The notes: generated by a model not told the origin, from the sequence alone. Numbered from the stretch's first letter, positions 3,790-18,921 are shown. The stretch is DNA of 20,000 nt from an uncultured virus (IMG/VR IMGVR_UViG_3300009500_000012) (IMGVR_UViG_3300009500_000012); one strand, 5' to 3'. Numbers and translations: made by a program.

Positions 3790-3923
3790 GCTACGAATTT
3801 ACAAACAGTAGTTCCACATACAGAACATTTGCCTTTTTTAGCTGAACGACCGTTCTTTGTAACCGTGTCTACAACATCTTTTGCTGGTTGTGACTTTTTA
3901 CATTTGACGCAATAAATTTCCAT
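3777..3923 (-). CDS. DUF5679-like small zinc-ribbon protein (48 aa; below ORF-track cutoff)
   Basis: MEIYCVKCKKSQPAKDVVDTVTKNGRSAKKGKCSVCGTTVCKFVASAK*, with the YCxKC...KNGR...GxCxxCG pattern. Confidence 0.8.
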   Translation of the reverse strand: MEIYCVKCKKSQPAKDVVDTVTKNGRSAKKGKCSVCGTTVCKFVASAK

Positions 3924-5751: not shown

Positions 5752-5836
5752 TGGCAGGGGAGGTGGGACTCGAACCCACGAAGCCCAAAGGCGACAGTTT
5801 TGGAGACTGTTGGAATAGCCGCTATCCGACTCCCCT
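5752..5836 (-). tRNA. tRNA-Trp (anticodon CCA) with long variable arm, CCA encoded
   Basis: AGGGGAG/CTCCCCT acceptor, G73, ACAGT-CTCCAAA-ACTGT anticodon arm, extra arm CGCCTTTGGGCTTC, T arm GTGGG-TTCGAGT-CCCAC. Confidence 0.9.
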
Positions 5837-5877: not shown

Positions 5878-6027
5878 CTAGCAACATTCATCTGTATCTT
5901 TTGTTTGATGAATATTAAAATCATTAGAATAAATTGTTGGTAAATGTATTTCAAAAGAGGTTGTTTCAGCAATATAATGGCTTAAAATCTCATTTATTTG
6001 TTCTGCTAAAATTTTATTTTCTTCCAT
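5878..6027 (-). CDS. small hypothetical protein (49 aa)
   Basis: MEENKILAEQINEILSHY...ECC*, preceded by AGGA; fills the gap between the nuclease and the tRNA promoter. Confidence 0.45.
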   Translation of the reverse strand: MEENKILAEQINEILSHYIAETTSFEIHLPTIYSNDFNIHQTKDTDECC

Positions 6028-6035
6028 ATCATGTC

Positions 6036-6419
6036 CTATTTATTATATAGTTTATCGTAAAAATTAATACCATGTTTTTGTATGACATATTTAAGAATTG
6101 GTGCCATTTCTTTTCTGCGTAAAATTGTTAAAGGATGAGGAAAGTAGCGATACTTCGCATGTGTTCTCGCTACTTCTCTACCCTTAACTTCAACATAACT
6201 TCCATCTACTATGAAATCAGGAATATAATTATATATTCTGTTTCTAAAAGTATAAGGAAATTTCTTTATGTTTCTTTCAATTTTTTTACCTTGGTCCTCA
6301 CACCAAATTACATATGCAAGTTCCCAGGAACTATCTAAAGACATTCCTTTATAAATGCCTTTATGAAATCTGGACTTTTTCTTTTTGCGACGAACAATTT
6401 TTTTAATTAATCTTTTCAT
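6036..6419 (-). CDS. PD-(D/E)XK endonuclease (TnsA-N / T7 endonuclease I-like)
   Basis: DSSWE...YIPDFIV...YVEVKG catalytic motif. Confidence 0.8.
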   Translation of the reverse strand: MKRLIKKIVRRKKKKSRFHKGIYKGMSLDSSWELAYVIWCEDQGKKIERNIKKFPYTFRNRIYNYIPDFIVDGSYVEVKGREVARTHAKYRYFPHPLTILRRKEMAPILKYVIQKHGINFYDKLYNK

Positions 6420-6442
6420 GCATAATAAATATGCAATTAAAA

Positions 6443-6802
6443 TTAAACTGGTTCTTGTTCGGTTCTCATTTCGATTGGTGCAGTTTCAGGGTTGTATTTC
6501 CACAATTTAAATTTAGACAACACACTTCTTTTGTTTCTATTTGAGAGCGCCTCTGTACAAATTGAAGAATAACCCATATCATTGTCAGGTTCAAAGAACT
6601 TAGTAAATTTAATATCATTTTCTGAAAGAAGTCTTTCTACATCAAAAAGTTCTTCTTCATCCTTGACACCAATCATTACTAAATTATAGTGAGGATTATC
6701 AGTAAATAAACGACCTGCATCCAAGGCAGCATGAATTCCTTGCACCATCTGTTGGGCAAGAGAAATATCCTGTCGGATAAAAATATATGTATATGTTCCC
6801 AT
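6443..6802 (-). CDS. peptidyl-tRNA hydrolase, Pth2-like (likely start ATG 6802; TTG 6853 is an alternative)
   Basis: YIFIRQDIS...QQMVQGIHAA...LVMIGV..E.EL......L....I....F.EPD.....SICTE pattern of Pth2-fold proteins. Confidence 0.8.
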   Translation of the reverse strand: MGTYTYIFIRQDISLAQQMVQGIHAALDAGRLFTDNPHYNLVMIGVKDEEELFDVERLLSENDIKFTKFFEPDNDMGYSSICTEALSNRNKRSVLSKFKLWKYNPETAPIEMRTEQEPV

Positions 6803-6806
6803 TTTC

Positions 6807-6849
6807 TTTCTTTCATTGAATAAGTGATAAAGTTTAACAATGAAAGAAA
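6807..6849 (-). promoter_or_regulatory. RBS-occluding hairpin upstream of the Pth2-like gene
   Basis: Perfect 12-bp inverted repeat TTTCTTTCATTG (6849-6838) / CAATGAAAGAAA (6818-6807), ending 4 nt before ATG 6802. Confidence 0.75.
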
Positions 6850-6882
6850 TCAAGGAGGTCGTGAATGATTGTTCTATAACAT
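6850..6882 (-). CDS. amber-interrupted leader peptide, copy 1 (M-L-*-N-N-H-S-R-P-P-stop)
   Basis: ATG TTA TAG AAC AAT CAT TCA CGA CCT CCT TGA; AAGGAG 14 nt upstream; second copy at 9270-9299. Confidence 0.65.
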
Positions 6883-6904
6883 TAAAAATTATTAAACTCC
6901 TTTA

Positions 6905-7252
6905 TTAATAATCAGAAAAATTAACTTTGATTTTTTCAAGTTCCTCAATGCTCGGACATTCTTCTGGAAGAACATCACATTCATTTTCAGGACTTACTTT
7001 TAATAATTTACCAGTCTTTTTATCATGTAATTCGCTTACATTTGCATCACAACTTCCTGAACAGGAACAACCAGAAGAATAGCAATAGAATACTACCCCA
7101 TCTTTATCAATTCCAATACCTGAATAGGAATGATTATTCCATCCATAATCTTCATTAGAAATTTCCTTAACAATGACTAATTTTTTATCATTGAAAGAAC
7201 TTTCTGGAAGCGTTTGATAGTTTTTCTTAACGAATTTAAGTATGTTATTCAT
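6905..7252 (-). CDS. hypothetical protein (GCSC motif)
   Basis: 115 aa ORF coupled to the upstream gene by an ATGA overlap. Confidence 0.75.
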   Translation of the reverse strand: MNNILKFVKKNYQTLPESSFNDKKLVIVKEISNEDYGWNNHSYSGIGIDKDGVVFYCYSSGCSCSGSCDANVSELHDKKTGKLLKVSPENECDVLPEECPSIEELEKIKVNFSDY

Positions 7253-7791
7253 TTTTGTTTATTCTTGTAATTTCGATTATTAATGATAGACCAACTATAT
7301 TTATTATGCTGAAAATTCAATATATCTAATGTTCTAAAATCTATCTTAGGAAATATTTGAAAATTTCCATTTTCAAATTCTTCTTCAGTCGGTGTACCAA
7401 ATATTGGTTTATCATCTTTGTTTACCCAGCACAATCTATTACCATTGCTATCATGATTAAAAACAATATAACCTGGCTCTAAACCATGTCCACAACACGC
7501 GCTACTTACTCCTGGCAAAATACCTAGACAACCATCTGCGCCATCTTCAATACCGCAAAAACCATCAAATTTTTCTTGCTTTAGATGACAAAAAACACAA
7601 GTTCTATCACCTAAAATAGGACCAGAAAAACCATACTCTACAGGAGTTAAATCCTCACACCATACGTATTCGCCAAATCTTTTGCCTTTTACAGGCTTAA
7701 TTTCAACATTTAAATCTTTAGCGTTATGAGCGAAAACACCTCCGATAATTTCGGCATCTATATGTTTATGATTTTCGTCAAAACAAATCAT
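7249..7791 (-). CDS. Cys/His-rich phage hypothetical protein
   Basis: CxxC...DGCLGILPGVSSACCGHG motif. Confidence 0.75.
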   Translation of the reverse strand: MICFDENHKHIDAEIIGGVFAHNAKDLNVEIKPVKGKRFGEYVWCEDLTPVEYGFSGPILGDRTCVFCHLKQEKFDGFCGIEDGADGCLGILPGVSSACCGHGLEPGYIVFNHDSNGNRLCWVNKDDKPIFGTPTEEEFENGNFQIFPKIDFRTLDILNFQHNKYSWSIINNRNYKNKQK

Positions 7792-8174
7792 TATGCGGAT
7801 TTCTTTTCTACTACTTTTTGCATTGCTGCTGCCAAAAGTTCTGCATTAACTTTATCTAACCCTTTACAAACCGATTGAGAACGCATTTCAAATTGTTCTT
7901 TTTCAAAATCATAAGATGCAGACCAGCCATGTTTGTCCGACCAATGTTCGAAGTTTTGTTCTTTTAATTTAAATTTAACTTCGCTTTGAAGCAATCTACA
8001 AAGGGAATAAACTTCTCTAAAAGTAAGAAGTCCTTTGCCTTTACCACTCTTAACCGGCAAAAATTTTTTTTCTTCAACATGGTAAAATAACGTCCATGTT
8101 TTTTGGTCCGCATTTGCGACAAAATAGGATGGCATTTCAGCCGGATATTTACGTGCTAGTGCTGCGAGTTTCAC
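7791..8174 (-). CDS. hypothetical protein
   Basis: 127 aa; AAGGAG SD; TAATG coupling to the next gene. Confidence 0.7.
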   Translation of the reverse strand: MKLAALARKYPAEMPSYFVANADQKTWTLFYHVEEKKFLPVKSGKGKGLLTFREVYSLCRLLQSEVKFKLKEQNFEHWSDKHGWSASYDFEKEQFEMRSQSVCKGLDKVNAELLAAAMQKVVEKKSA

Positions 8175-8391
8175 AATGCTCCTTAAAAAAATCTTCTGCT
8201 TCTTTTTCTAATTGCTCTTGCTTTTTTAGATACTTTGCATCCACCTCGAAAATAAATACCTTAGCACCATCACCTTCTAATTCAAGTTTGTAATTTCGTG
8301 CTTCATCATATGTCATTTGTTCAGATTCGAGAGGTAACTCAGAATGACTACCATTTTTCCCGGTTGGTGGATAGATTTTAAGATAATACAT
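8149..8391 (-). CDS. hypothetical protein (80 aa; start re-assigned to ATG 8391)
   Basis: MYYLKIYPP...; the longer start in the ORF track overlaps the upstream gene extensively. Confidence 0.6.
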   Translation of the reverse strand: MYYLKIYPPTGKNGSHSELPLESEQMTYDEARNYKLELEGDGAKVFIFEVDAKYLKKQEQLEKEAEDFFKEHCETRSTST

Positions 8392-8590
8392 TTGAGTTAT
8401 CTTTCTTAGCAGGAGCAGAAATTCCACAACTTTTGCAAAAAATCCAAGGCCAATTCTCTGCTGCATATTTTCTTTGAACGCCAGCAATAGAATAAGTTCC
8501 CGTTTTTTGTATAGTTAAACGCATTTCAATTTCTAAAGTTTTATTACTACATTGAGGACAAGATGTTTCTTTAATATCCATAATATCCAT
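8378..8590 (-). CDS. zinc-ribbon protein
   Basis: CPQC...CKSC. Confidence 0.7.
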   Translation of the reverse strand: MDIMDIKETSCPQCSNKTLEIEMRLTIQKTGTYSIAGVQRKYAAENWPWIFCKSCGISAPAKKDNSNVLS

Positions 8591-8596
8591 TTATTA

Positions 8597-8667
8597 CGCC
8601 CTGCACAGGAATCGAACCCGTACCTCCCAGATTAGAACCTGTTATGCTCCCACTACACCAGCAAGGC
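8597..8667 (-). tRNA. atypical tRNA with CUA at positions 34-36 (amber-suppressor-like); CCA not encoded
   Basis: GCCTTGC/GCAGGGC acceptor, G73, D arm GTGT-AGTGGGA-GCAT, T arm ACGGG-TTCGATT-CCTGT. The anticodon arm ACAGG-TTCTAAT-CTGGG is irregular. Confidence 0.7.
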
Positions 8668-8678
8668 ACTCCATAAAC

Positions 8679-8707
8679 ATCATATCATTCTGCTAATGAT
8701 TAGTCAA
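8679..8707 (-). promoter_or_regulatory. sigma70-like promoter directly upstream of the CUA tRNA
   Basis: TTGACT-17 nt-TATGAT with extended TG; 11 nt to the tRNA 5' end. Confidence 0.75.
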
Positions 8708-8740
8708 ACAGGAAGGCAGGACCAACCTACCTTCCTGTTT
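8706..8740 (-). terminator. stem-loop terminator after 8746..9201
   Basis: AAACAGGAAGGCAGG-ACCAA-CCTACCTTCCTGTTT. Confidence 0.75.
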
Positions 8741-8745
8741 AAGTC

Positions 8746-9201
8746 TTACTTAATTAGTTGTTCTAACTCTTTAAGTTTTTGTTTAACTTTTTCTTTAACT
8801 TCTGGACGAAGCGTGATGACAAATTCAGGAAGTCTTGTAGGCTTTGCAGCATAGAAGGTTCCATAAATATCTTCATATTTTTCTCTTGAACTATATACAA
8901 TATTATTTGTTAAAATATAATAGTTGTATTTATTATCTTTGCTATAGGAAAAAGCATCTGATAATTCATTGATTGCTTTTTGCAATTTCCAGTATTTATT
9001 TCGACCTTGAGCCGCATATCCCTGAATTCTTTTTTCAGTTTGTAAGGGCTTCCAACATTTTAAAACATCTTTATCAGAAATAATTAACCATAAAAGATGA
9101 TTCCATGAATGACCAGGAATTTTCTTTTCAAGATATTTCTTGATGGTTTTTTTGTTTTTAAGATATTCTTCTTTAGTAAGAGTATATTCTTTAATTTTCA
9201 T
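8746..9201 (-). CDS. hypothetical basic protein, preceded by the second amber leader
   Basis: 151 aa; GGAG SD partly inside the hairpin at 9211-9265. Confidence 0.8.
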   Translation of the reverse strand: MKIKEYTLTKEEYLKNKKTIKKYLEKKIPGHSWNHLLWLIISDKDVLKCWKPLQTEKRIQGYAAQGRNKYWKLQKAINELSDAFSYSKDNKYNYYILTNNIVYSSREKYEDIYGTFYAAKPTRLPEFVITLRPEVKEKVKQKLKELEQLIK

Positions 9202-9210
9202 TTAATTTCT

Positions 9211-9265
9211 CCAATTTAAAATAATAAGTGTTAAAGTAGTAGTAACTTAGATTAATTTAAATTGG
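9211..9265 (-). promoter_or_regulatory. RBS-occluding hairpin upstream of 8746..9201
   Basis: CCAATTTAAATTAAT (9265-9251) pairs with ATTATTTTAAATTGG (9225-9211) at 14/15 positions, overlapping the GG of the GGAG SD; an inner TAAGT/ACTTA pairing extends it. Confidence 0.7.
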
Positions 9266-9269
9266 TTAA

Positions 9270-9299
9270 TTAAGGAGGTCGATTAGCGGTCTACAACAT
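9270..9299 (-). CDS. amber-interrupted leader peptide, copy 2 (M-L-*-T-A-N-R-P-P-stop)
   Basis: ATG TTG TAG ACC GCT AAT CGA CCT CCT TAA, preceded by TAAGGA about 9 nt upstream. Confidence 0.7.
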
Positions 9300-9318
9300 T
9301 TATGATTGTCCTTAAAAT

Positions 9319-9408
9319 TGGCGGAAAATGTGAGAATCTAACTCACGAAAGGCTCATCACCTCCAGGCGTTTTCAAGACGCTTTCCTCGTACATGCCGGA
9401 CATTTTCC
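9319..9408 (-). tRNA. tRNA-Ser (UGA), long variable arm, non-canonical D/T loops
   Basis: GGAAAAT/ATTTTCC acceptor, G73-CCA, loop CT-TGA-AA, T loop TTAGATT. Confidence 0.85.
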
Positions 9409-9430
9409 AAAATTTATTTTTTCTTTTTAT

Positions 9431-9520
9431 TGGAGGAATCGGCGAGATTTGAACTCGCGACCGTTTTAAGACGGTGTTTCCTTTCCAGGGAAATGGTTTA
9501 AGCCGCTCACCCACAATTCC
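9431..9520 (-). tRNA. tRNA-Ser (GGA)
   Basis: GGAATTG/CGATTCC acceptor, TTTCC-CTGGAAA-GGAAA, long variable arm ACCGT/ACGGT, U73-CCA. Confidence 0.92.
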
Positions 9521-9532
9521 TTGTACTTTTAG

Positions 9533-9543
9533 ATTATACCACA
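9533..9543 (-). promoter_or_regulatory. extended -10 promoter for the tRNA-Ser pair
   Basis: TGTGGTATAAT 12 nt upstream of tRNA-Ser(GGA). Confidence 0.7.
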
Positions 9544-9589
9544 TTTGTCAAGATGTATCGAATCTAAAGTTAATTAGTATTTTATTAAT

Positions 9590-9865
9590 ATGAAACTTAT
9601 AGATTCGGACCCTAATTGGATTATTTCTGGCGAAAACCGTAAAGGTATGGGTATTATTTTTAATTGCCCACATTGTAATGGTAATATTTGCGTTTGGTTT
9701 TCCAATCCTATAGATGGAGGACCACCTGCTCCATCTGAAATTTTACCGTCACCTAGATGGGACAGAACAGGTGATAATTTTGAAAATTTGACTTTAATGC
9801 CATCTATTAATACTTTAAATCATTGGCATGGATTTATAATTAATGGAGAAATTATTAATTGCTAG
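9590..9865 (+). CDS. DUF6527-like small metal-binding protein
   Basis: CPHC...RWDRTGD.FE.LTL.PSI....WHG.I.NG. Confidence 0.65.
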   Translation: MKLIDSDPNWIISGENRKGMGIIFNCPHCNGNICVWFSNPIDGGPPAPSEILPSPRWDRTGDNFENLTLMPSINTLNHWHGFIINGEIINC

Positions 9866-10772
9866 ATGAAGTTACCATCCATTGTGTGTAAGCAGGTTCC
9901 CAAATCAATGTATTTGTATTTCCTGGTGATGTAAAGCATTGCCCAAAATACGATTGACTTCCATTATCTATATTAGATGGTAGAACATCTACCCAATTAT
10001 TTGAATTTGTAAGTAACTTAATATTTGAAGATACAATTGTACTTACCATACTACATTCGCCAGGAGTATAATGCGTTTCAAACATATCCCATGACTCACC
10101 ATTATAGTTATTAGAAGCAGCGATAGAAGTATAAACTAGTTCCCAATTTTGATTTTTATAGTTATAAATTAAAACTCTTGTTGAATAGTCTTGTCCTAAT
10201 AAGATTTCTGTTGTAAATTGTAATGCGCCATTTCCAAAATCTCGCAAATAACTAGAGGCAAATGCCGCATCAATTACTTTATCTGCTCCTGTTCCCCATC
10301 CTGCACTACAAAAATCATAAGGTCTTAAATCTCTATAGGTATCACCTGTTGAGGTTCTCCAATAATCTGTACTAAATTCAATACAACCTCCGCCAAGTTT
10401 TGTAGTTGGAGCGTAAAGATAATTAACTAAAGAAGAATTTGTTGTAGGATTTAATTCAAGATTAGGGTCTGCACTATTATTTGCATAAATACCAATATAT
10501 GTTGGACTACTTATGAGAAATAAACCTGCTTGTCCTCCATCATCCTGAACTGTAACAATAGATTTAGATTGTTCTGTTCCATATTTAGGACCATTACCTA
10601 ATGGTAATGATTTTGGTAGTGGGTTCGGAGTTGATGTGCTAAAACTTGTTTGCAAAAGTAATACAGGCGCTACAGGAGTTTGATATGAACTCGGAGCAGG
10701 AGTTGGAACAGTAGATGGAACTTGATTACACCCAAATAATACTAATAGGCATAATAAAAATATATTTTTCAT
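9855..10772 (-). CDS. lipoprotein with Pro/Ser/Thr-rich linker and beta-rich extracytoplasmic domain
   Basis: Lipobox LFG|C after a short hydrophobic signal; Ser/Thr/Asn/Tyr-rich; paired cysteines. Confidence 0.7.
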   Translation of the reverse strand: MKNIFLLCLLVLFGCNQVPSTVPTPAPSSYQTPVAPVLLLQTSFSTSTPNPLPKSLPLGNGPKYGTEQSKSIVTVQDDGGQAGLFLISSPTYIGIYANNSADPNLELNPTTNSSLVNYLYAPTTKLGGGCIEFSTDYWRTSTGDTYRDLRPYDFCSAGWGTGADKVIDAAFASSYLRDFGNGALQFTTEILLGQDYSTRVLIYNYKNQNWELVYTSIAASNNYNGESWDMFETHYTPGECSMVSTIVSSNIKLLTNSNNWVDVLPSNIDNGSQSYFGQCFTSPGNTNTLIWEPAYTQWMVTSSSN

Positions 10773-11371
10773 GATATAGAATCAAATCTAGATGAATAAG
10801 TGAATATTTCTGTTTTTGAATTTACAGGCGAGTATATATGAAATGGCTTATCAACACTAGAACAATTTGCAGCAGCCGCTTGAAGCGCAATCATTATTTT
10901 TCCCCAAGGCTTACCAAGATATTCTTTTTGTAATGCGTACAAAGCACCTAATGCATATGAAGACCCCGAACCAACAGAAGCATAAGGTACAATAGATTCA
11001 GCCACTTGATAATCTGAAAATATAGTAAATAATCGACCTTGATAACCTACAAGGAAAACTCCGCCTTCTTCTTTGTCTTTTTCTTTTGAAGCAAATCCAC
11101 CATCTTTTAATTTTTCTCTAACTGCTTCAACAAAATCAGTTACCATATATTCAAAAGTATCCTGATTTTCTTTTTGTTTAGGAATTTCCAATTTGTATTG
11201 AAGAAGTTGACCCATCCTAAAAGATGTAGTAAATCCGATTACAAAATCATCCTTTAAAAAGATTTTTTTATCTTTCCTAGAAGTTATTCGTCCATTATCA
11301 GATGTTCCAGCACTATCTGCGCCCATATAAACATCTTTGTTGTCATCTATAAATCCAACTATACAAGTCAA
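10769..11371 (-). CDS. HslV/proteasome-beta-like Ntn hydrolase
   Basis: N-terminal M-T-C-I-V-G, GADS, KIF and VGSGS..A.GAL motifs. Confidence 0.85.
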   Translation of the reverse strand: MTCIVGFIDDNKDVYMGADSAGTSDNGRITSRKDKKIFLKDDFVIGFTTSFRMGQLLQYKLEIPKQKENQDTFEYMVTDFVEAVREKLKDGGFASKEKDKEEGGVFLVGYQGRLFTIFSDYQVAESIVPYASVGSGSSYALGALYALQKEYLGKPWGKIMIALQAAAANCSSVDKPFHIYSPVNSKTEIFTYSSRFDSIS

Positions 11372-14659: not shown

Positions 14660-15207
14660 CTTGAAAGAGAAGGGAATAAAGCATCTAAATTCATAGATTT
14701 AAACACATATTCTTTTAATTTTTCCATTGCATCAGGAAAATTTTCTCCACAAGTAATCATTTTATCATCCTGATAATTAACCACCATCCAAGCAGGAATT
14801 TCGTGTAAAATATCTGTATGAATAGAATCTCTTTTTAATAATATTCTTGGCAATAAAGTAACTGTCATTAATTCAATGACTCTTTTTGGGTCTGGTGGAA
14901 TAATAGGTTTTAAGGTATAAGATTCTTGTAAATGAATTATAGAATGTGGTAATGTTGCAGCAGTAGAGACAAATTCTTTCCAAATTGAATGCGGATTTGT
15001 TCCTGAAAAGATTTTATATGGGTCGTCAAAATCTCGACCTATAGACGCTTCTCTACGCCCAATAGTAATTTGAAAAACCTTAGTTTCTTTGATAGTTGAT
15101 TCGGTCAATCGGTCCCATTTTTTAGTTACTTTAAACCTAAATGAAGGCTGTGAAGCTCCGCTTGAATTATTTTTATCAGCCATTACACAACCATATTTGT
15201 TGTTCAT
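14650..15207 (-). CDS. hypothetical protein
   Basis: 185 aa; TAATG coupling to NAMPT. Confidence 0.7.
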   Translation of the reverse strand: MNNKYGCVMADKNNSSGASQPSFRFKVTKKWDRLTESTIKETKVFQITIGRREASIGRDFDDPYKIFSGTNPHSIWKEFVSTAATLPHSIIHLQESYTLKPIIPPDPKRVIELMTVTLLPRILLKRDSIHTDILHEIPAWMVVNYQDDKMITCGENFPDAMEKLKEYVFKSMNLDALFPSLSSWK

Positions 15208-16700
15208 TAGCCTTGCGCCCCTATAACATGACCTTCTTTATTGAGTAAAATTTTCTTCCCAAAATTCAAGACATTAGATTTAATTCTTTGATTTACTCTT
15301 CTACGAACTTCATCAATTGTGGTTTGATTAAAAAGTTCGCCGTTACGATAAACTAATTGAAGTTGACTTAGTTCTTCGACAGGGCTTGGATGACCCGGAG
15401 TTATAAAAGCACTACTACGGTCAATTGTCTTATATTCTCCGTCAAAATACACTAAATCTAAATCTCCAGACTTTGATTTTTTACCTGGGTCTGTTTTTGG
15501 ATTTTTAGATACATCACGATACACGCCGTTAACTTTAGCAAGTGAAGCCTTATAAGCAAATTTATATGTATCACGGTTACATTGTTGAAGAAGTGCGCCG
15601 CCCATACCGAAGGCTACGTTATCTAAAGAGAAACCTGCATGAATACAAACTCGTTCAATAATTTTATTGATAGTTGCTTCTTCAATACCATCGCCTTGAA
15701 TAACACGAACATTGTTAAGCACCTTGTAACCCTTATTGTTAATTGTATATCCGTATTTGTCTGCTAATCCTTTAACAGTACGTAAAACAATTTCTTCAAT
15801 TGGAGAACCAGAATCAGGTCGGACAACAACTGTTTTTCCTGATTTAATGACTTCTGCTTTAAGTTCATCACCCCAAATATTTTGAACTGCATTGTCAAGG
15901 TCATAACTATCAGATACAACGGCCACCAGAGGGGTATTAAAACGTTCAAGCATCATCCTAAATGCTGCTGCTTCATTATCTTTGCCCCAAGTAGTAATGG
16001 TGCTGTGTTCGGCTGCTGGAATTGAAAATCCAGTCATTGCGCTACCATAATATTTATTAGCGGCAAGCACACCAACAACGGTATCCGAACCCATGAAATT
16101 AGCAAGATGCGCTGCGCCGCCAATAGCGGCTGATTCTCTTGAACTTACACCTCGGGCACCAAAGTCATGAAGTTTAAAGTCAATTTGACTATCTGGGTCA
16201 TCAGAAGTTTTTACAAGTGCTTTATAAATAATTTCTTTAATACGGTTAGAGATGGTCGAAACTGTGATGGGATACCATACGCGCAATAATTGAGTCTCAA
16301 ACCAAGAAGTCATCCAAAATAAACGCGGGTCTGTCGAACGAACTGTTACCAAAACATTATGGGAAGGAACAAAAGTACCTTCGGGTACAGCCTTGATTTC
16401 CAAAGGAATACTGCCATCATATTTTTCAACGACATACATCCAATCTTGATAAGGAAATATACCAGGTCCAATATGAGCATCAACAAATGCTTTGGCTTCT
16501 TCAACATCTGCCTTAGTAATTTTTTGTTTCAATTGGTTGAGAATTAACTGCAATCCAAAAAACAAAGTACCAGGATTTTCGGTCGGGCCTCCACGGCTTT
16601 CAATATAGCAGAGAATTTCTTCTGTTCCCTCTGGATATTGTAAAGGATGAGTAAACTTGTATGAGTCGGTATCTAAAATCGGATTGTGAATATCTAGCAT
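15207..16700 (-). CDS. nadV: nicotinamide phosphoribosyltransferase (NAMPT)
   Basis: DTDSYKFTH, LHDFGARG, SIPAAEHST, VSDSYD, VRPDSG, IQGDG and FGMGGALLQ...RDT motifs. Confidence 0.95.
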   Translation of the reverse strand: MLDIHNPILDTDSYKFTHPLQYPEGTEEILCYIESRGGPTENPGTLFFGLQLILNQLKQKITKADVEEAKAFVDAHIGPGIFPYQDWMYVVEKYDGSIPLEIKAVPEGTFVPSHNVLVTVRSTDPRLFWMTSWFETQLLRVWYPITVSTISNRIKEIIYKALVKTSDDPDSQIDFKLHDFGARGVSSRESAAIGGAAHLANFMGSDTVVGVLAANKYYGSAMTGFSIPAAEHSTITTWGKDNEAAAFRMMLERFNTPLVAVVSDSYDLDNAVQNIWGDELKAEVIKSGKTVVVRPDSGSPIEEIVLRTVKGLADKYGYTINNKGYKVLNNVRVIQGDGIEEATINKIIERVCIHAGFSLDNVAFGMGGALLQQCNRDTYKFAYKASLAKVNGVYRDVSKNPKTDPGKKSKSGDLDLVYFDGEYKTIDRSSAFITPGHPSPVEELSQLQLVYRNGELFNQTTIDEVRRRVNQRIKSNVLNFGKKILLNKEGHVIGAQG

Positions 16701-18846: not shown

Positions 18847-18921
18847 TGGTGTCCCTATTAAGAATCGAACTTAAACTTCAGCCTTCGGAAGACCGCGCAC
18901 TATCCATTATACTATAGGGAC
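18847..18921 (-). tRNA. tRNA-Arg (CCG)
   Basis: GTCCCTA/TAGGGAC acceptor, A20, CGGTC-TTCCGAA-GGCTG, TTCGATT loop, A73-CCA. Confidence 0.93.

Follow-up and report, generated by a model that had tools for sequence, protein, structure and literature searches.

Stop codons matched by nearby suppressor tRNAs in short leaders of phage genes: a candidate translational gate upstream of Pth2-like genes

The uncultured viral sequence IMGVR_UViG_3300009500_000012 was analyzed over 20,000 nt (the whole stretch is hereafter the window). Two short leader open reading frames (ORFs) in it are interrupted by an amber codon (TAG) at the third codon, and each is followed by a hairpin which covers the ribosome-binding site (RBS) of the next gene, encoding a Pth2-like protein in one case and a 151-aa protein in the other. 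Early stop and RBS hairpin recur in related loci, where the stop corresponds to the anticodon of a neighbouring suppressor tRNA whenever such a tRNA was found. Judged from the sequences, this is a real, conserved regulatory design of a known class (leader ORF plus RBS hairpin); its input would be suppression of a stop codon by a phage-encoded tRNA whose anticodon changes along with that stop, and such an input appears to be undescribed for a natural system. Each leader is probably a translational gate, reporting the activity of the stop-codon-reading tRNA of the phage. All genes of the studied region lie on the minus strand, and the elements in question are:

6897..6902, minus strand: AAGGAG, Shine-Dalgarno-like (SD-like) sequence of leader 1 as read from the sequence, 14 nt 5' of the leader ATG
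6850..6882, minus strand: leader 1, ATG TTA TAG AAC AAT CAT TCA CGA CCT CCT TGA, M-L-amber-N-N-H-S-R-P-P-stop
6807..6849, minus strand: hairpin 1, a perfect 12-bp stem (5' arm 6849-6838, 3' arm 6818-6807) immediately after the leader TGA
6443..6802, minus strand: Pth2-like gene, 119 aa; AlphaFold2 model with a pLDDT of 94 and Foldseek matches to Pth2
9309..9313, minus strand: AAGGA, SD-like sequence of leader 2, 9 nt 5' of the leader ATG
9270..9299, minus strand: leader 2, ATG TTG TAG ACC GCT AAT CGA CCT CCT TAA, M-L-amber-T-A-N-R-P-P-stop
9202..9274, minus strand: hairpin 2, composed of an inner stem of 10 bp (9265-9256 with 9220-9211), an outer stem and additional pairs
8746..9201, minus strand: 151-aa gene of an unclassified family, standing in the place of the partner gene described below (leader, gene, tRNA-CUA)
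8596..8668, minus strand: tRNA with the loop TTCTAAT (anticodon CUA), a presumed amber suppressor; 41.5 bits with the Rfam tRNA model

Re-reading of the sequence found both leaders and both hairpins where a preliminary description of this DNA had placed them, with ATG, TAG and final stop at 6882-6880, 6876-6874 and 6852-6850 (TGA) in leader 1, and at 9299-9297, 9293-9291 and 9272-9270 (TAA) in leader 2. The nearly equal distance from amber codon to stem holds as well, being 24 nt in leader 1 and 25 nt in leader 2. The 3' arm of hairpin 1 takes in positions -16 to -5 relative to the Pth2-like start, and ends 4 nt before the ATG at 6802. The inner stem of hairpin 2 begins 4 nt past the leader TAA, the outer stem is built from the last bases of the leader and its stop codon, and the GGAG (9212-9209) before the 151-aa gene (ATG at 9201) is masked by the 3' side. 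Folding from leader end to gene start gave -15.4 kcal/mol (z -4.1) for hairpin 1 and -11.9 kcal/mol (z -3.3) for hairpin 2, with 12/13 and 10/13 bases of the SD region paired, in line with the occlusion of the downstream RBS that had been proposed.

The motif CGACCTCCTT occurs twice in the window against 0.36 copies expected, at least two copies being reached in 8/200 shuffles. ATGTTRTAG occurs four times against 0.46 expected, a number reached in 0/200 shuffles; two of the four copies (3869-3877 and 15221-15229) lie within coding sequence, in a different context. A scan of the window for more starts followed by an early TAG gave no convincing third gated gene. The shared motif might be a signal at the DNA level or due to chance, its reverse complement AAGGAGGTCG serving as a plus-strand ribosome-binding site, and the 10 identical bases common to both copies, together with an AAGGAGG located 6 nt before an ATG at 6866 (ORF M-I-V-L-stop), fit this idea. 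For the second plus-strand ATG, however, the AAGGAGG is 23 nt away, the reading frame of the peptide is preserved in relatives though its codons differ (CCG CCG, CCA CCA), and the design is specific to strand and frame; we find this explanation hardly credible, and the plus-strand reading of AAGGAGGTCG was dropped.

Related loci, designated by L and a number, were collected by using the Pth2-like protein and then its alignment, and amounted to 3, 14 and 32, 46 of which came from the latter two rounds. Duplicates (L007, L010, L011, L014, L021, L023, L031, L037, L038) were dropped before counting, one copy being kept per viral/metagenome pair, and three loci lacking upstream DNA (L024, L044, L049) were excluded; 31 distinct sequence types, besides the window, are left. 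An early-stop leader is found in 28 of them. In the remaining three (L022, L028, L043) the amber codon is found inside the Pth2-like gene, within its first 3-7 codons, and the early stop gates the module in all the 31 assessable types. Both forms coexist in L009. In L028 (about 1625-1760), a second tRNA(CUA) is followed by an extra mini-ORF, ATG TCG TAG, and by a hairpin resembling a terminator, with a T-run; the same ATG TCG TAG ATT then opens the Pth2-like gene of this locus.

Leaders directly precede the Pth2-like gene in six types:

L001: M-T-R-amber-I-N-E-P-P-stop
L002 and L033: M-K-amber-V-L-N-N-S-P-P-stop
L018 (closest relative of the window, 65% identity): M-H-T-amber-A-T-T-R-G-P-stop
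L019: M-L-amber-I-T-K-P-P-stop
L020: M-L-amber-V-H-K-Q-S-P-stop

In 22 types the leader is found before the partner, a gene of 100-160 aa with the motif W...FKPI(T/S)N..KL.NG..P, or before another upstream gene. In most of these types the Pth2-like gene overlaps the end of the partner gene, usually via ATGA or a nearby stop; a different gene takes the place of the partner in L036, and one or more extra genes separate partner and Pth2-like gene in L030 and L041. The leaders include:

ten types: M-M-amber-(V/I)-Y-(F/L)-N-S-S-stop (M-M class)
L008 and L017: M-Q/K-amber-(V/I)-L-N-N-G-P-P-stop
L025, L027 and L042: M-...-amber-V-R-N-(K/N)-S-P-P-stop
L041: M-S-amber-N-S-S-V-G-P-R-A-P-P-Y-stop

The leaders (n=30) span about 8-33 codons each, and the internal stop falls at codon 3-7 in all of them; a few codons further on, the frame is closed by a second stop, different from the first. 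SD sequences of the GGA/GAG type are located 5-14 nt 5' of the start in 24 of the 25 tabulated leaders, that of L039 starting at the first base of its contig. A strict pattern (start, one or two codons, TAG, 3-7 sense codons ending with Pro, TAA or TGA) was searched on both strands of 35 sources, 175,119 nt in all, and gave 15 hits, 11 of which lie just before a module gene; 50 block shuffles gave a mean of 4 hits and a maximum of 11.

The internal stop corresponds to the anticodon of the neighbouring suppressor tRNA in 21/21 types in which such a tRNA was found, without any mismatch. TAG leaders are accompanied by tRNA(CUA) within the fetched stretch in 19 types, the window and 18 more identified with ARAGORN, L041 included; the Pth2-like gene usually has the tRNA gene as its immediate 3' neighbour, in the same orientation. 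The internal stop is TGA in L039, where the tRNA following the Pth2-like gene is UCA, and TAA in L048, where the tRNA is UUA. No suppressor tRNA was found in the DNA fetched for L001, L016, L018, L034, L036 and L046. The base following the internal stop is a purine in all the 25 leaders compared, and a purine after an amber codon is a context which favours amber suppression. In the M-M class (12 leaders), minority letters in the six codons after the stop number 16, 4 and 20 at the three codon positions, and the share of synonymous changes among pairwise codon differences is 0.40 in frame vs. 0.22 and 0.14 in the shifted frames. Pro-Pro is spelled by eight codon pairs, CCT CCT, CCG CCG, CCA CCA and CCG CCA among them. 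By its pattern of substitution, the stretch after the internal stop evolves like coding sequence.

Leaders made of SD, ATG, one codon and a stop (ATG-TTR-TAG), set before a gene with the Pth2 fold, recall the bar minigenes of phage lambda, in which an SD and a two-codon ORF cause peptidyl-tRNA drop-off. M-L-stop could similarly shed peptidyl-tRNA, and sense or titrate the hydrolase, autoregulating the Pth2-like gene without read-through. A conserved in-frame continuation is not a feature of bar minigenes; here, the continuation and its coding-type substitutions would be left unexplained, as would the second stop at the stem base and the match between stop and anticodon. Moreover, types with the stop inside the Pth2-like gene need read-through for any protein to be made, and a minigene without read-through is quite improbable.

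The leaders might alternatively sense the activity of release factor 1 (RF1), inhibited or depleted in infection, rather than the suppressor tRNA. RF1 and tRNA compete for the amber codon, and low RF1 also raises read-through; in the absence of a cognate tRNA, low RF1 leads, however, to stalling and not to read-through. The association of TGA and TAA leaders with UCA and UUA tRNAs points to the tRNA, rather than to RF1, as the variable that matters, which makes sensing of RF1 very improbable.

Of the 36 window ORFs taken as genes, 23 end with TAA, 6 with TGA and 7 with TAG, which is therefore an ordinary stop there. The TAG-ended genes would become longer by 2-104 codons if read through, and no ORF in the 20 kb of genome examined needs TAG as a sense codon: the window phage does not recode TAG within these 20 kb, and does not qualify there as a code-15 phage. 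This bears on the view that the leaders are ordinary coupling upstream ORFs (uORFs) with a hairpin, in phages that translate TAG as a sense codon everywhere (code 15), the TAG being incidental. The Pth2-like gene of L001 has an in-frame TAG at codon 36, so that in this phage, at least, TAG is decoded within genes, and suppressor tRNAs are a hallmark of recoded phages in the accessible part of 10.1101/2021.08.26.457843. An incidental TAG is unlikely to recur within codons 3-7 of all leaders, or to be replaced by TGA or TAA in just those loci that have a UCA or UUA tRNA nearby, and, in the accessible part of the paper on phage XacN1 (PMC5852040), no gene was found to be extended by reading through any of 18 amber stops. 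Taken with the use of TAG as terminator in the window, these data make the code-15 explanation unlikely.

The early stop inside the Pth2-like gene is also seen in cultured phages. tblastn with a family member retrieved 35 phage records, mostly of jumbo phages of Enterobacteria, Xanthomonas, Acinetobacter and Ralstonia, seven of which were inspected:

Arash (L052): gene start M-L-amber-N-K-H-W-I-Y-T-F-V-R
GAP32 (L050): M-A-Q-amber-N-E-K-T-W-I-Y-V-F-V-R, coding sequence truncated in the record
ME3 (L054): M-T-amber-I-H-E-N-K-K-H-T-Y-V-F-V-R, with a tRNA labelled "anticodon CTA" 450 nt upstream
RsoM2USA (L055): M-L-amber-I-S-D-K-T-Y-S-Y-C-F-I-R, gene not annotated
XacN1 (L053): ATG AAG TAG, in frame and 7 codons before the annotated start of ORF364 (1947-2806)

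No early stop was found in the Pth2-like gene of phage RaK2. In Arash, the C-terminal third alone is annotated, as "peptidyl-tRNA hydrolase", and the tRNA(CUA) found 1 kb downstream is annotated as tRNA-Phe. Because of the early TAG, the Pth2-like gene is truncated or left out in the public annotations of GAP32, Arash, RsoM2USA and ME3. In XacN1 and CM1 (L056), jumbo phages of Xanthomonas/Stenotrophomonas, the Pth2-like domain is fused to an N-terminal domain of about 180 aa, which holds an H-D-M-A/D-F-H stretch, and makes up the C-terminus of ORF364 in XacN1.

Hairpins were compared by folding 25 leaders from their last two codons to the third base after the ATG of the next gene. In all of them, paired bases of the SD region pair with the leader end or with the 15 nt following its stop; z averages -2.6, and is below -1.64 in 20/25 leaders, on a generous control (see below). 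Stem sequences are unrelated between classes:

window: UUUCUUUCAUUG with CAAUGAAAGAAA
M-M class: UCUUCUUAA with UUAAGGAAGA
L020: AUGAUGAAU with AUUCAUCAU
L036: GUGAU with AUCAC

Measured from the stem base, the final stop in the leader frame falls between -3 and +9 nt in 19/25 leaders, vs. 4/25 and 3/25 for the first stops of the other two frames. In most leaders, the stem base lies 14-22 nt past the internal stop, a distance which the footprint of a ribosome waiting there would just fail to span. In two GC-rich types, the leader stop is instead near the next start, 18 nt from it in L016 and overlapping it as TGATG in L048. Many leaders pair their last codons and their stop codon with the SD of the next gene, and CCUCC is therefore in part an anti-SD sequence. 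In the M-M class (L003, L012, L015, L032, L045-L047 and others in the alignment A6), CATTGCAATTTTG is almost unchanged in the hairpin loop, a degree of conservation beyond what a plain loop would call for.

Leader ends are varied. Thirteen of the 30 leaders, those of the window included, end with Pro-Pro-stop, two with x-Pro, one (L041) with RAPPY, 12 with Ser/Thr-Ser/Thr-stop, and two otherwise. The Arg of R-P-P is replaced by E, S, K, G or N. Of the leader architecture that was to be looked for in relatives, the early-stop leader recurs in 28/31 types and the RBS hairpin in the 25 leaders folded, and R-x-P-P is not conserved; the arrest motif proposed for the window failed this comparison, RAPP being found in L041 alone. 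The pause assumed at Pro-Pro-stop would apply to half of the family at most: the dipeptide closes the 13 leaders counted above, and is missing from the Ser/Thr-ending ones. The core of the preliminary description, sensing of read-through, draws support from the recurrence of the leader, from the 21/21 agreement of stop and anticodon, and from the location of the final stop at the stem base.

As pictured from these comparisons, a ribosome released at the early stop, about 14-22 nt before the stem, would leave the stem closed and the gene OFF. Where tRNA(CUA) inserts an amino acid at UAG, the ribosome would reach the final stop and unwind the 5' arm, setting the SD free and turning the gene ON. 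In many relatives, the ribosome that reads through would also unwind the last leader codons that pair with the SD. In leaders ending with Pro-Pro-stop, those of the window included, slow termination after proline would probably hold the ribosome longer. The pair formed by the Pth2-fold protein and its partner would thereby be made in step with suppression, the likely purpose being to deal with peptidyl-tRNA or stalled ribosomes created by suppression, ribosomes that have moved past stop codons included; permuted tmRNA genes near the module in four relatives (see below) are in keeping with such a purpose. Since the tRNA gene directly follows the gated pair on the same strand in most relatives, transcription could be helped to run on into the tRNA gene when the pair is translated. 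A wider proposal, which we put forward tentatively and hold to be somewhat doubtful as a whole, is that leader, partner, Pth2-fold gene and suppressor tRNA form a self-contained cassette, in which the tRNA would act mainly as a trans-acting switch and not in genome recoding, and the stop of the gate would co-evolve with the anticodon (UAG/CUA, UGA/UCA, UAA/UUA). The Pth2-fold protein would be the target of the suppressor tRNAs of standard-code jumbo phages, and a self-reinforcing, all-or-none switch could result.

Several data weigh against a tRNA-reporting gate. In the window, the SD of leader 1 is 14 nt from the start, a long spacing compared with the 7-9 nt of relatives. Whole-region folds of the two window leaders (117 and 133 nt) are unremarkable (z -1.5 and -1.8), as are two further whole leader-region folds (z -0.3 and -0.1). 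The z values of the 25 hairpins are generous, because mononucleotide shuffles were used as control and the bounds were chosen with the hairpin already known. The loci are related by descent, and because of this shared ancestry the counts are not independent events and overstate independence. RNAalifold, run on 11 leaders of the M-M class, gave a closing stem of seven pairs with one compensatory change; the covariation check that had been suggested thus returned the stem and hardly any covariation, this class being too conserved for such a test. The absence of Pro-Pro-stop from the 12 Ser/Thr-ending leaders implies that a termination pause is not essential.

Other objections concern the tRNAs. 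ARAGORN assigned no anticodon to the window tRNA, and two non-standard pairs are found in its anticodon stem in the Rfam alignment; for these two reasons, it may be a weak suppressor. The tRNA found in the corresponding slot of L030 (4455-4531) has a 4-bp anticodon stem and a 9-nt loop, and was called Arg(tct) by ARAGORN though its loop holds CTCTAAA. L004 has TAA as internal and TAG as final stop, and an ochre suppressor is expected to read the final TAG too; in the 34-kb record of this locus, none of 26 matches to tRNA models (25 above the cut-off) was read as UUA or as a suppressor. Two of the 26 matches are odd. A match at 1821-1935 on the minus strand of L066, the record behind L004, is 115 nt long with a 54-nt insertion in the anticodon arm, and may be an intron-bearing tRNA.

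A tRNA-reporting gate would combine features of several known systems. In translational attenuation of ermC, cat and cmlA, a leader ORF with its own SD is translated by a ribosome which an antibiotic holds at a sense codon, and this opens a hairpin that hides the next SD. The phage leaders are likewise short ORFs with an SD before such a hairpin; their signal would be a stop read through by a phage tRNA instead of an antibiotic stall, and about half of them have no obvious stalling motif. In prfB, encoding release factor 2 (RF2), an early in-frame UGA is escaped by +1 frameshifting and senses the release factor. There as here, an early in-frame stop gauges its decoding machinery and sets gene output, but escape in the phage leaders would be via the suppressor tRNA, and no frameshift site was seen in them. 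In the coat-replicase region of MS2, translation of an upstream ORF melts a long-range pairing hiding the next RBS, a coupling which the phage leaders resemble; unlike them, MS2 has a full upstream gene and no stop-codon gate. The C-terminal Pro-Pro before a hidden RBS recalls the arrest peptides ApdA, ApdP and SecM (RAPP/RAPG), and the L041 leader ends with R-A-P-P-Y-stop; window leaders have R-P-P-stop, 12/30 leaders have no proline, and the pause, if any, would take place at termination and not in elongation. As in trp and his leaders, translation of a leader at particular codons would report the supply of a particular charged tRNA. trp and his leaders, and the engineered tna and trp leaders, act on transcription through terminators or Rho, whereas the phage leaders would act on an RBS hairpin. 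The engineered leaders, described in PMC6412442, contain TAG and make downstream expression dependent on a suppressor tRNA; they are man-made, and the phage version appears to be natural.

In recoded code-15 phages, as in the leaders described here, a phage tRNA(CUA) has been proposed to time the expression of TAG-containing genes, according to the accessible part of 10.1101/2021.08.26.457843. TAG codons are scattered in late genes there, whereas in the phages analyzed here one small module is gated and TAG is otherwise a stop, as far as seen. The words leader, uORF, hairpin, attenuat- and hydrolase are absent from the main text of that study. A full-text literature search, with most subscription journals outside its scope, found no description of a leader, uORF or gene start that is gated in nature by a suppressor tRNA of a phage. 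The reports on XacN1 (PMC5852040), RsoM2USA (PMC8386662) and phiKp24 (PMC8504454) give the targets or the purpose of suppressor tRNAs as unknown. Many large phages of standard code carry a suppressor tRNA of unknown purpose, for which the gated module would be a specific, conserved target, and the natural counterpart of engineered switches with UAG in a leader. In public annotations the gated gene is truncated or missed, and the tRNA mislabelled. If the Pth2-fold protein does clear by-products of suppression, the module would show how phages tolerate a change of stop-codon meaning in the course of infection.

The window Pth2-like protein itself has no match in Pfam at E <= 0.01. PF01981 (PTH2) is matched by 49/58 aligned family members at E <= 1, the best value being 6.2e-8, and the family profile matches a peptidyl-tRNA hydrolase structure, PDB 24bt_A, at 2.8e-5. 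A profile built from eight relatives of the protein retrieved 2,367 representative proteins at E <= 0.001. Compared to the PDB with Foldseek, the AlphaFold2 model gave 13 matches at E <= 0.001, with a probability of 1.00 and TM scores of 0.66-0.72 for the top ones; the best are archaeal and human Pth2 entries (2zv3, 3erj, 1q7s, 1xty, 1wn2). Because the model matches Pth2 structures, the label Pth2-like, given earlier to the gene starting at 6802, holds for the fold: on the evidence of the model the protein has the Pth2 fold, and is likely a peptidyl-tRNA hydrolase. A TTG at 6851-6853 (minus strand) overlaps the stop of leader 1 (ccTTGA) and is in frame with the Pth2-like gene, with no stop in between; the resulting ORF, 6443..6853, is 136 aa long, and reinitiation there would add an N-terminal extension of 17 residues. 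This longer ORF was dropped, as the closest relative, L018, has no start codon there and the extension is not kept.

For the 151-aa protein, a protein search found one relative, of 90% identity; no Pfam or PHROG family and no relative among viral contigs were found, and the ESM Atlas returned nothing usable for this protein or for a partner protein. Signals linking it to the partner family are weak (BLASTP E 9e-4 to the L017 partner; hhalign P 0.012 on K-x-F/W-K-P), and in a hmmsearch with the partner family it ranks first among 102 window ORFs, but with an E of 0.74. These signals agree with the shared place in the module, and the 151-aa gene is possibly a homolog of the partner. The two gated genes of the window, at first described as unrelated, may not be so, partner and Pth2-like gene being one overlapping pair behind a single leader in most relatives. 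The partner family matches no Pfam family, and a PHROG of unknown function is matched by only 3/18 members. The AlphaFold2 model of a partner (pLDDT 86) is all-helical; against the PDB, it gave no Foldseek match at E <= 0.001, and generic helical matches only with VIA-align (best Z 5.7). A predicted complex of partner and Pth2-like protein scored 0.00, which is evidence neither way.

The CUA tRNA is located between the two leader copies of the window, as had been noticed, with the caveat of its odd anticodon stem; when it is aligned with 22 suppressor tRNAs of related loci, its CTA falls on theirs. Its surroundings include:

8679..8707, minus strand: sigma-70-like promoter match (TTGACT, 17 nt, TG-TATGAT), by consensus only, just before tRNA(CUA)
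8704-8742, minus strand: strong 15-bp hairpin directly after the stop of the 151-aa gene, with no clear U-run

The hairpin overlaps the -35 of the promoter-like site, which would start transcription a few bases before tRNA(CUA). Because the match stands just before the tRNA, the latter probably has its own promoter; across the region as a whole, promoter-like matches are no more numerous than in shuffles. A further tRNA-like gene, at 9322-9409 (minus strand), was overlooked by ARAGORN. It scores 33.5 bits with the tRNA-Sec model, below the cut-off of 47, and features a long extra arm and the anticodon loop CUUGAAA (UGA, Ser-like). Its neighbours are tRNA-Ser(GGA) at 9431-9520 on one side and leader 2 on the other, its end being 9 nt from the SD of the leader.

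A DNA search with window positions 6000-10000 against 50,697 phage records gave no match. The context is that of a large phage, as the window encodes a nicotinamide phosphoribosyltransferase (15207-16700, minus strand; PF04095, 1.9e-53), an HslV-like peptidase (10769-11371, minus strand; phrog_1040, 1.3e-27), and tRNA-Trp and tRNA-Arg at 5752-5836 and 18847-18921, both on the minus strand. In four relatives, permuted transfer-messenger RNA (tmRNA) genes, reported by ARAGORN as tmRNA*, are found 1-3 kb upstream of the module (L003 594-963, L015 204-660, L030 1181-1644, L035 1185-1544), which suggests a cluster of ribosome-rescue functions.

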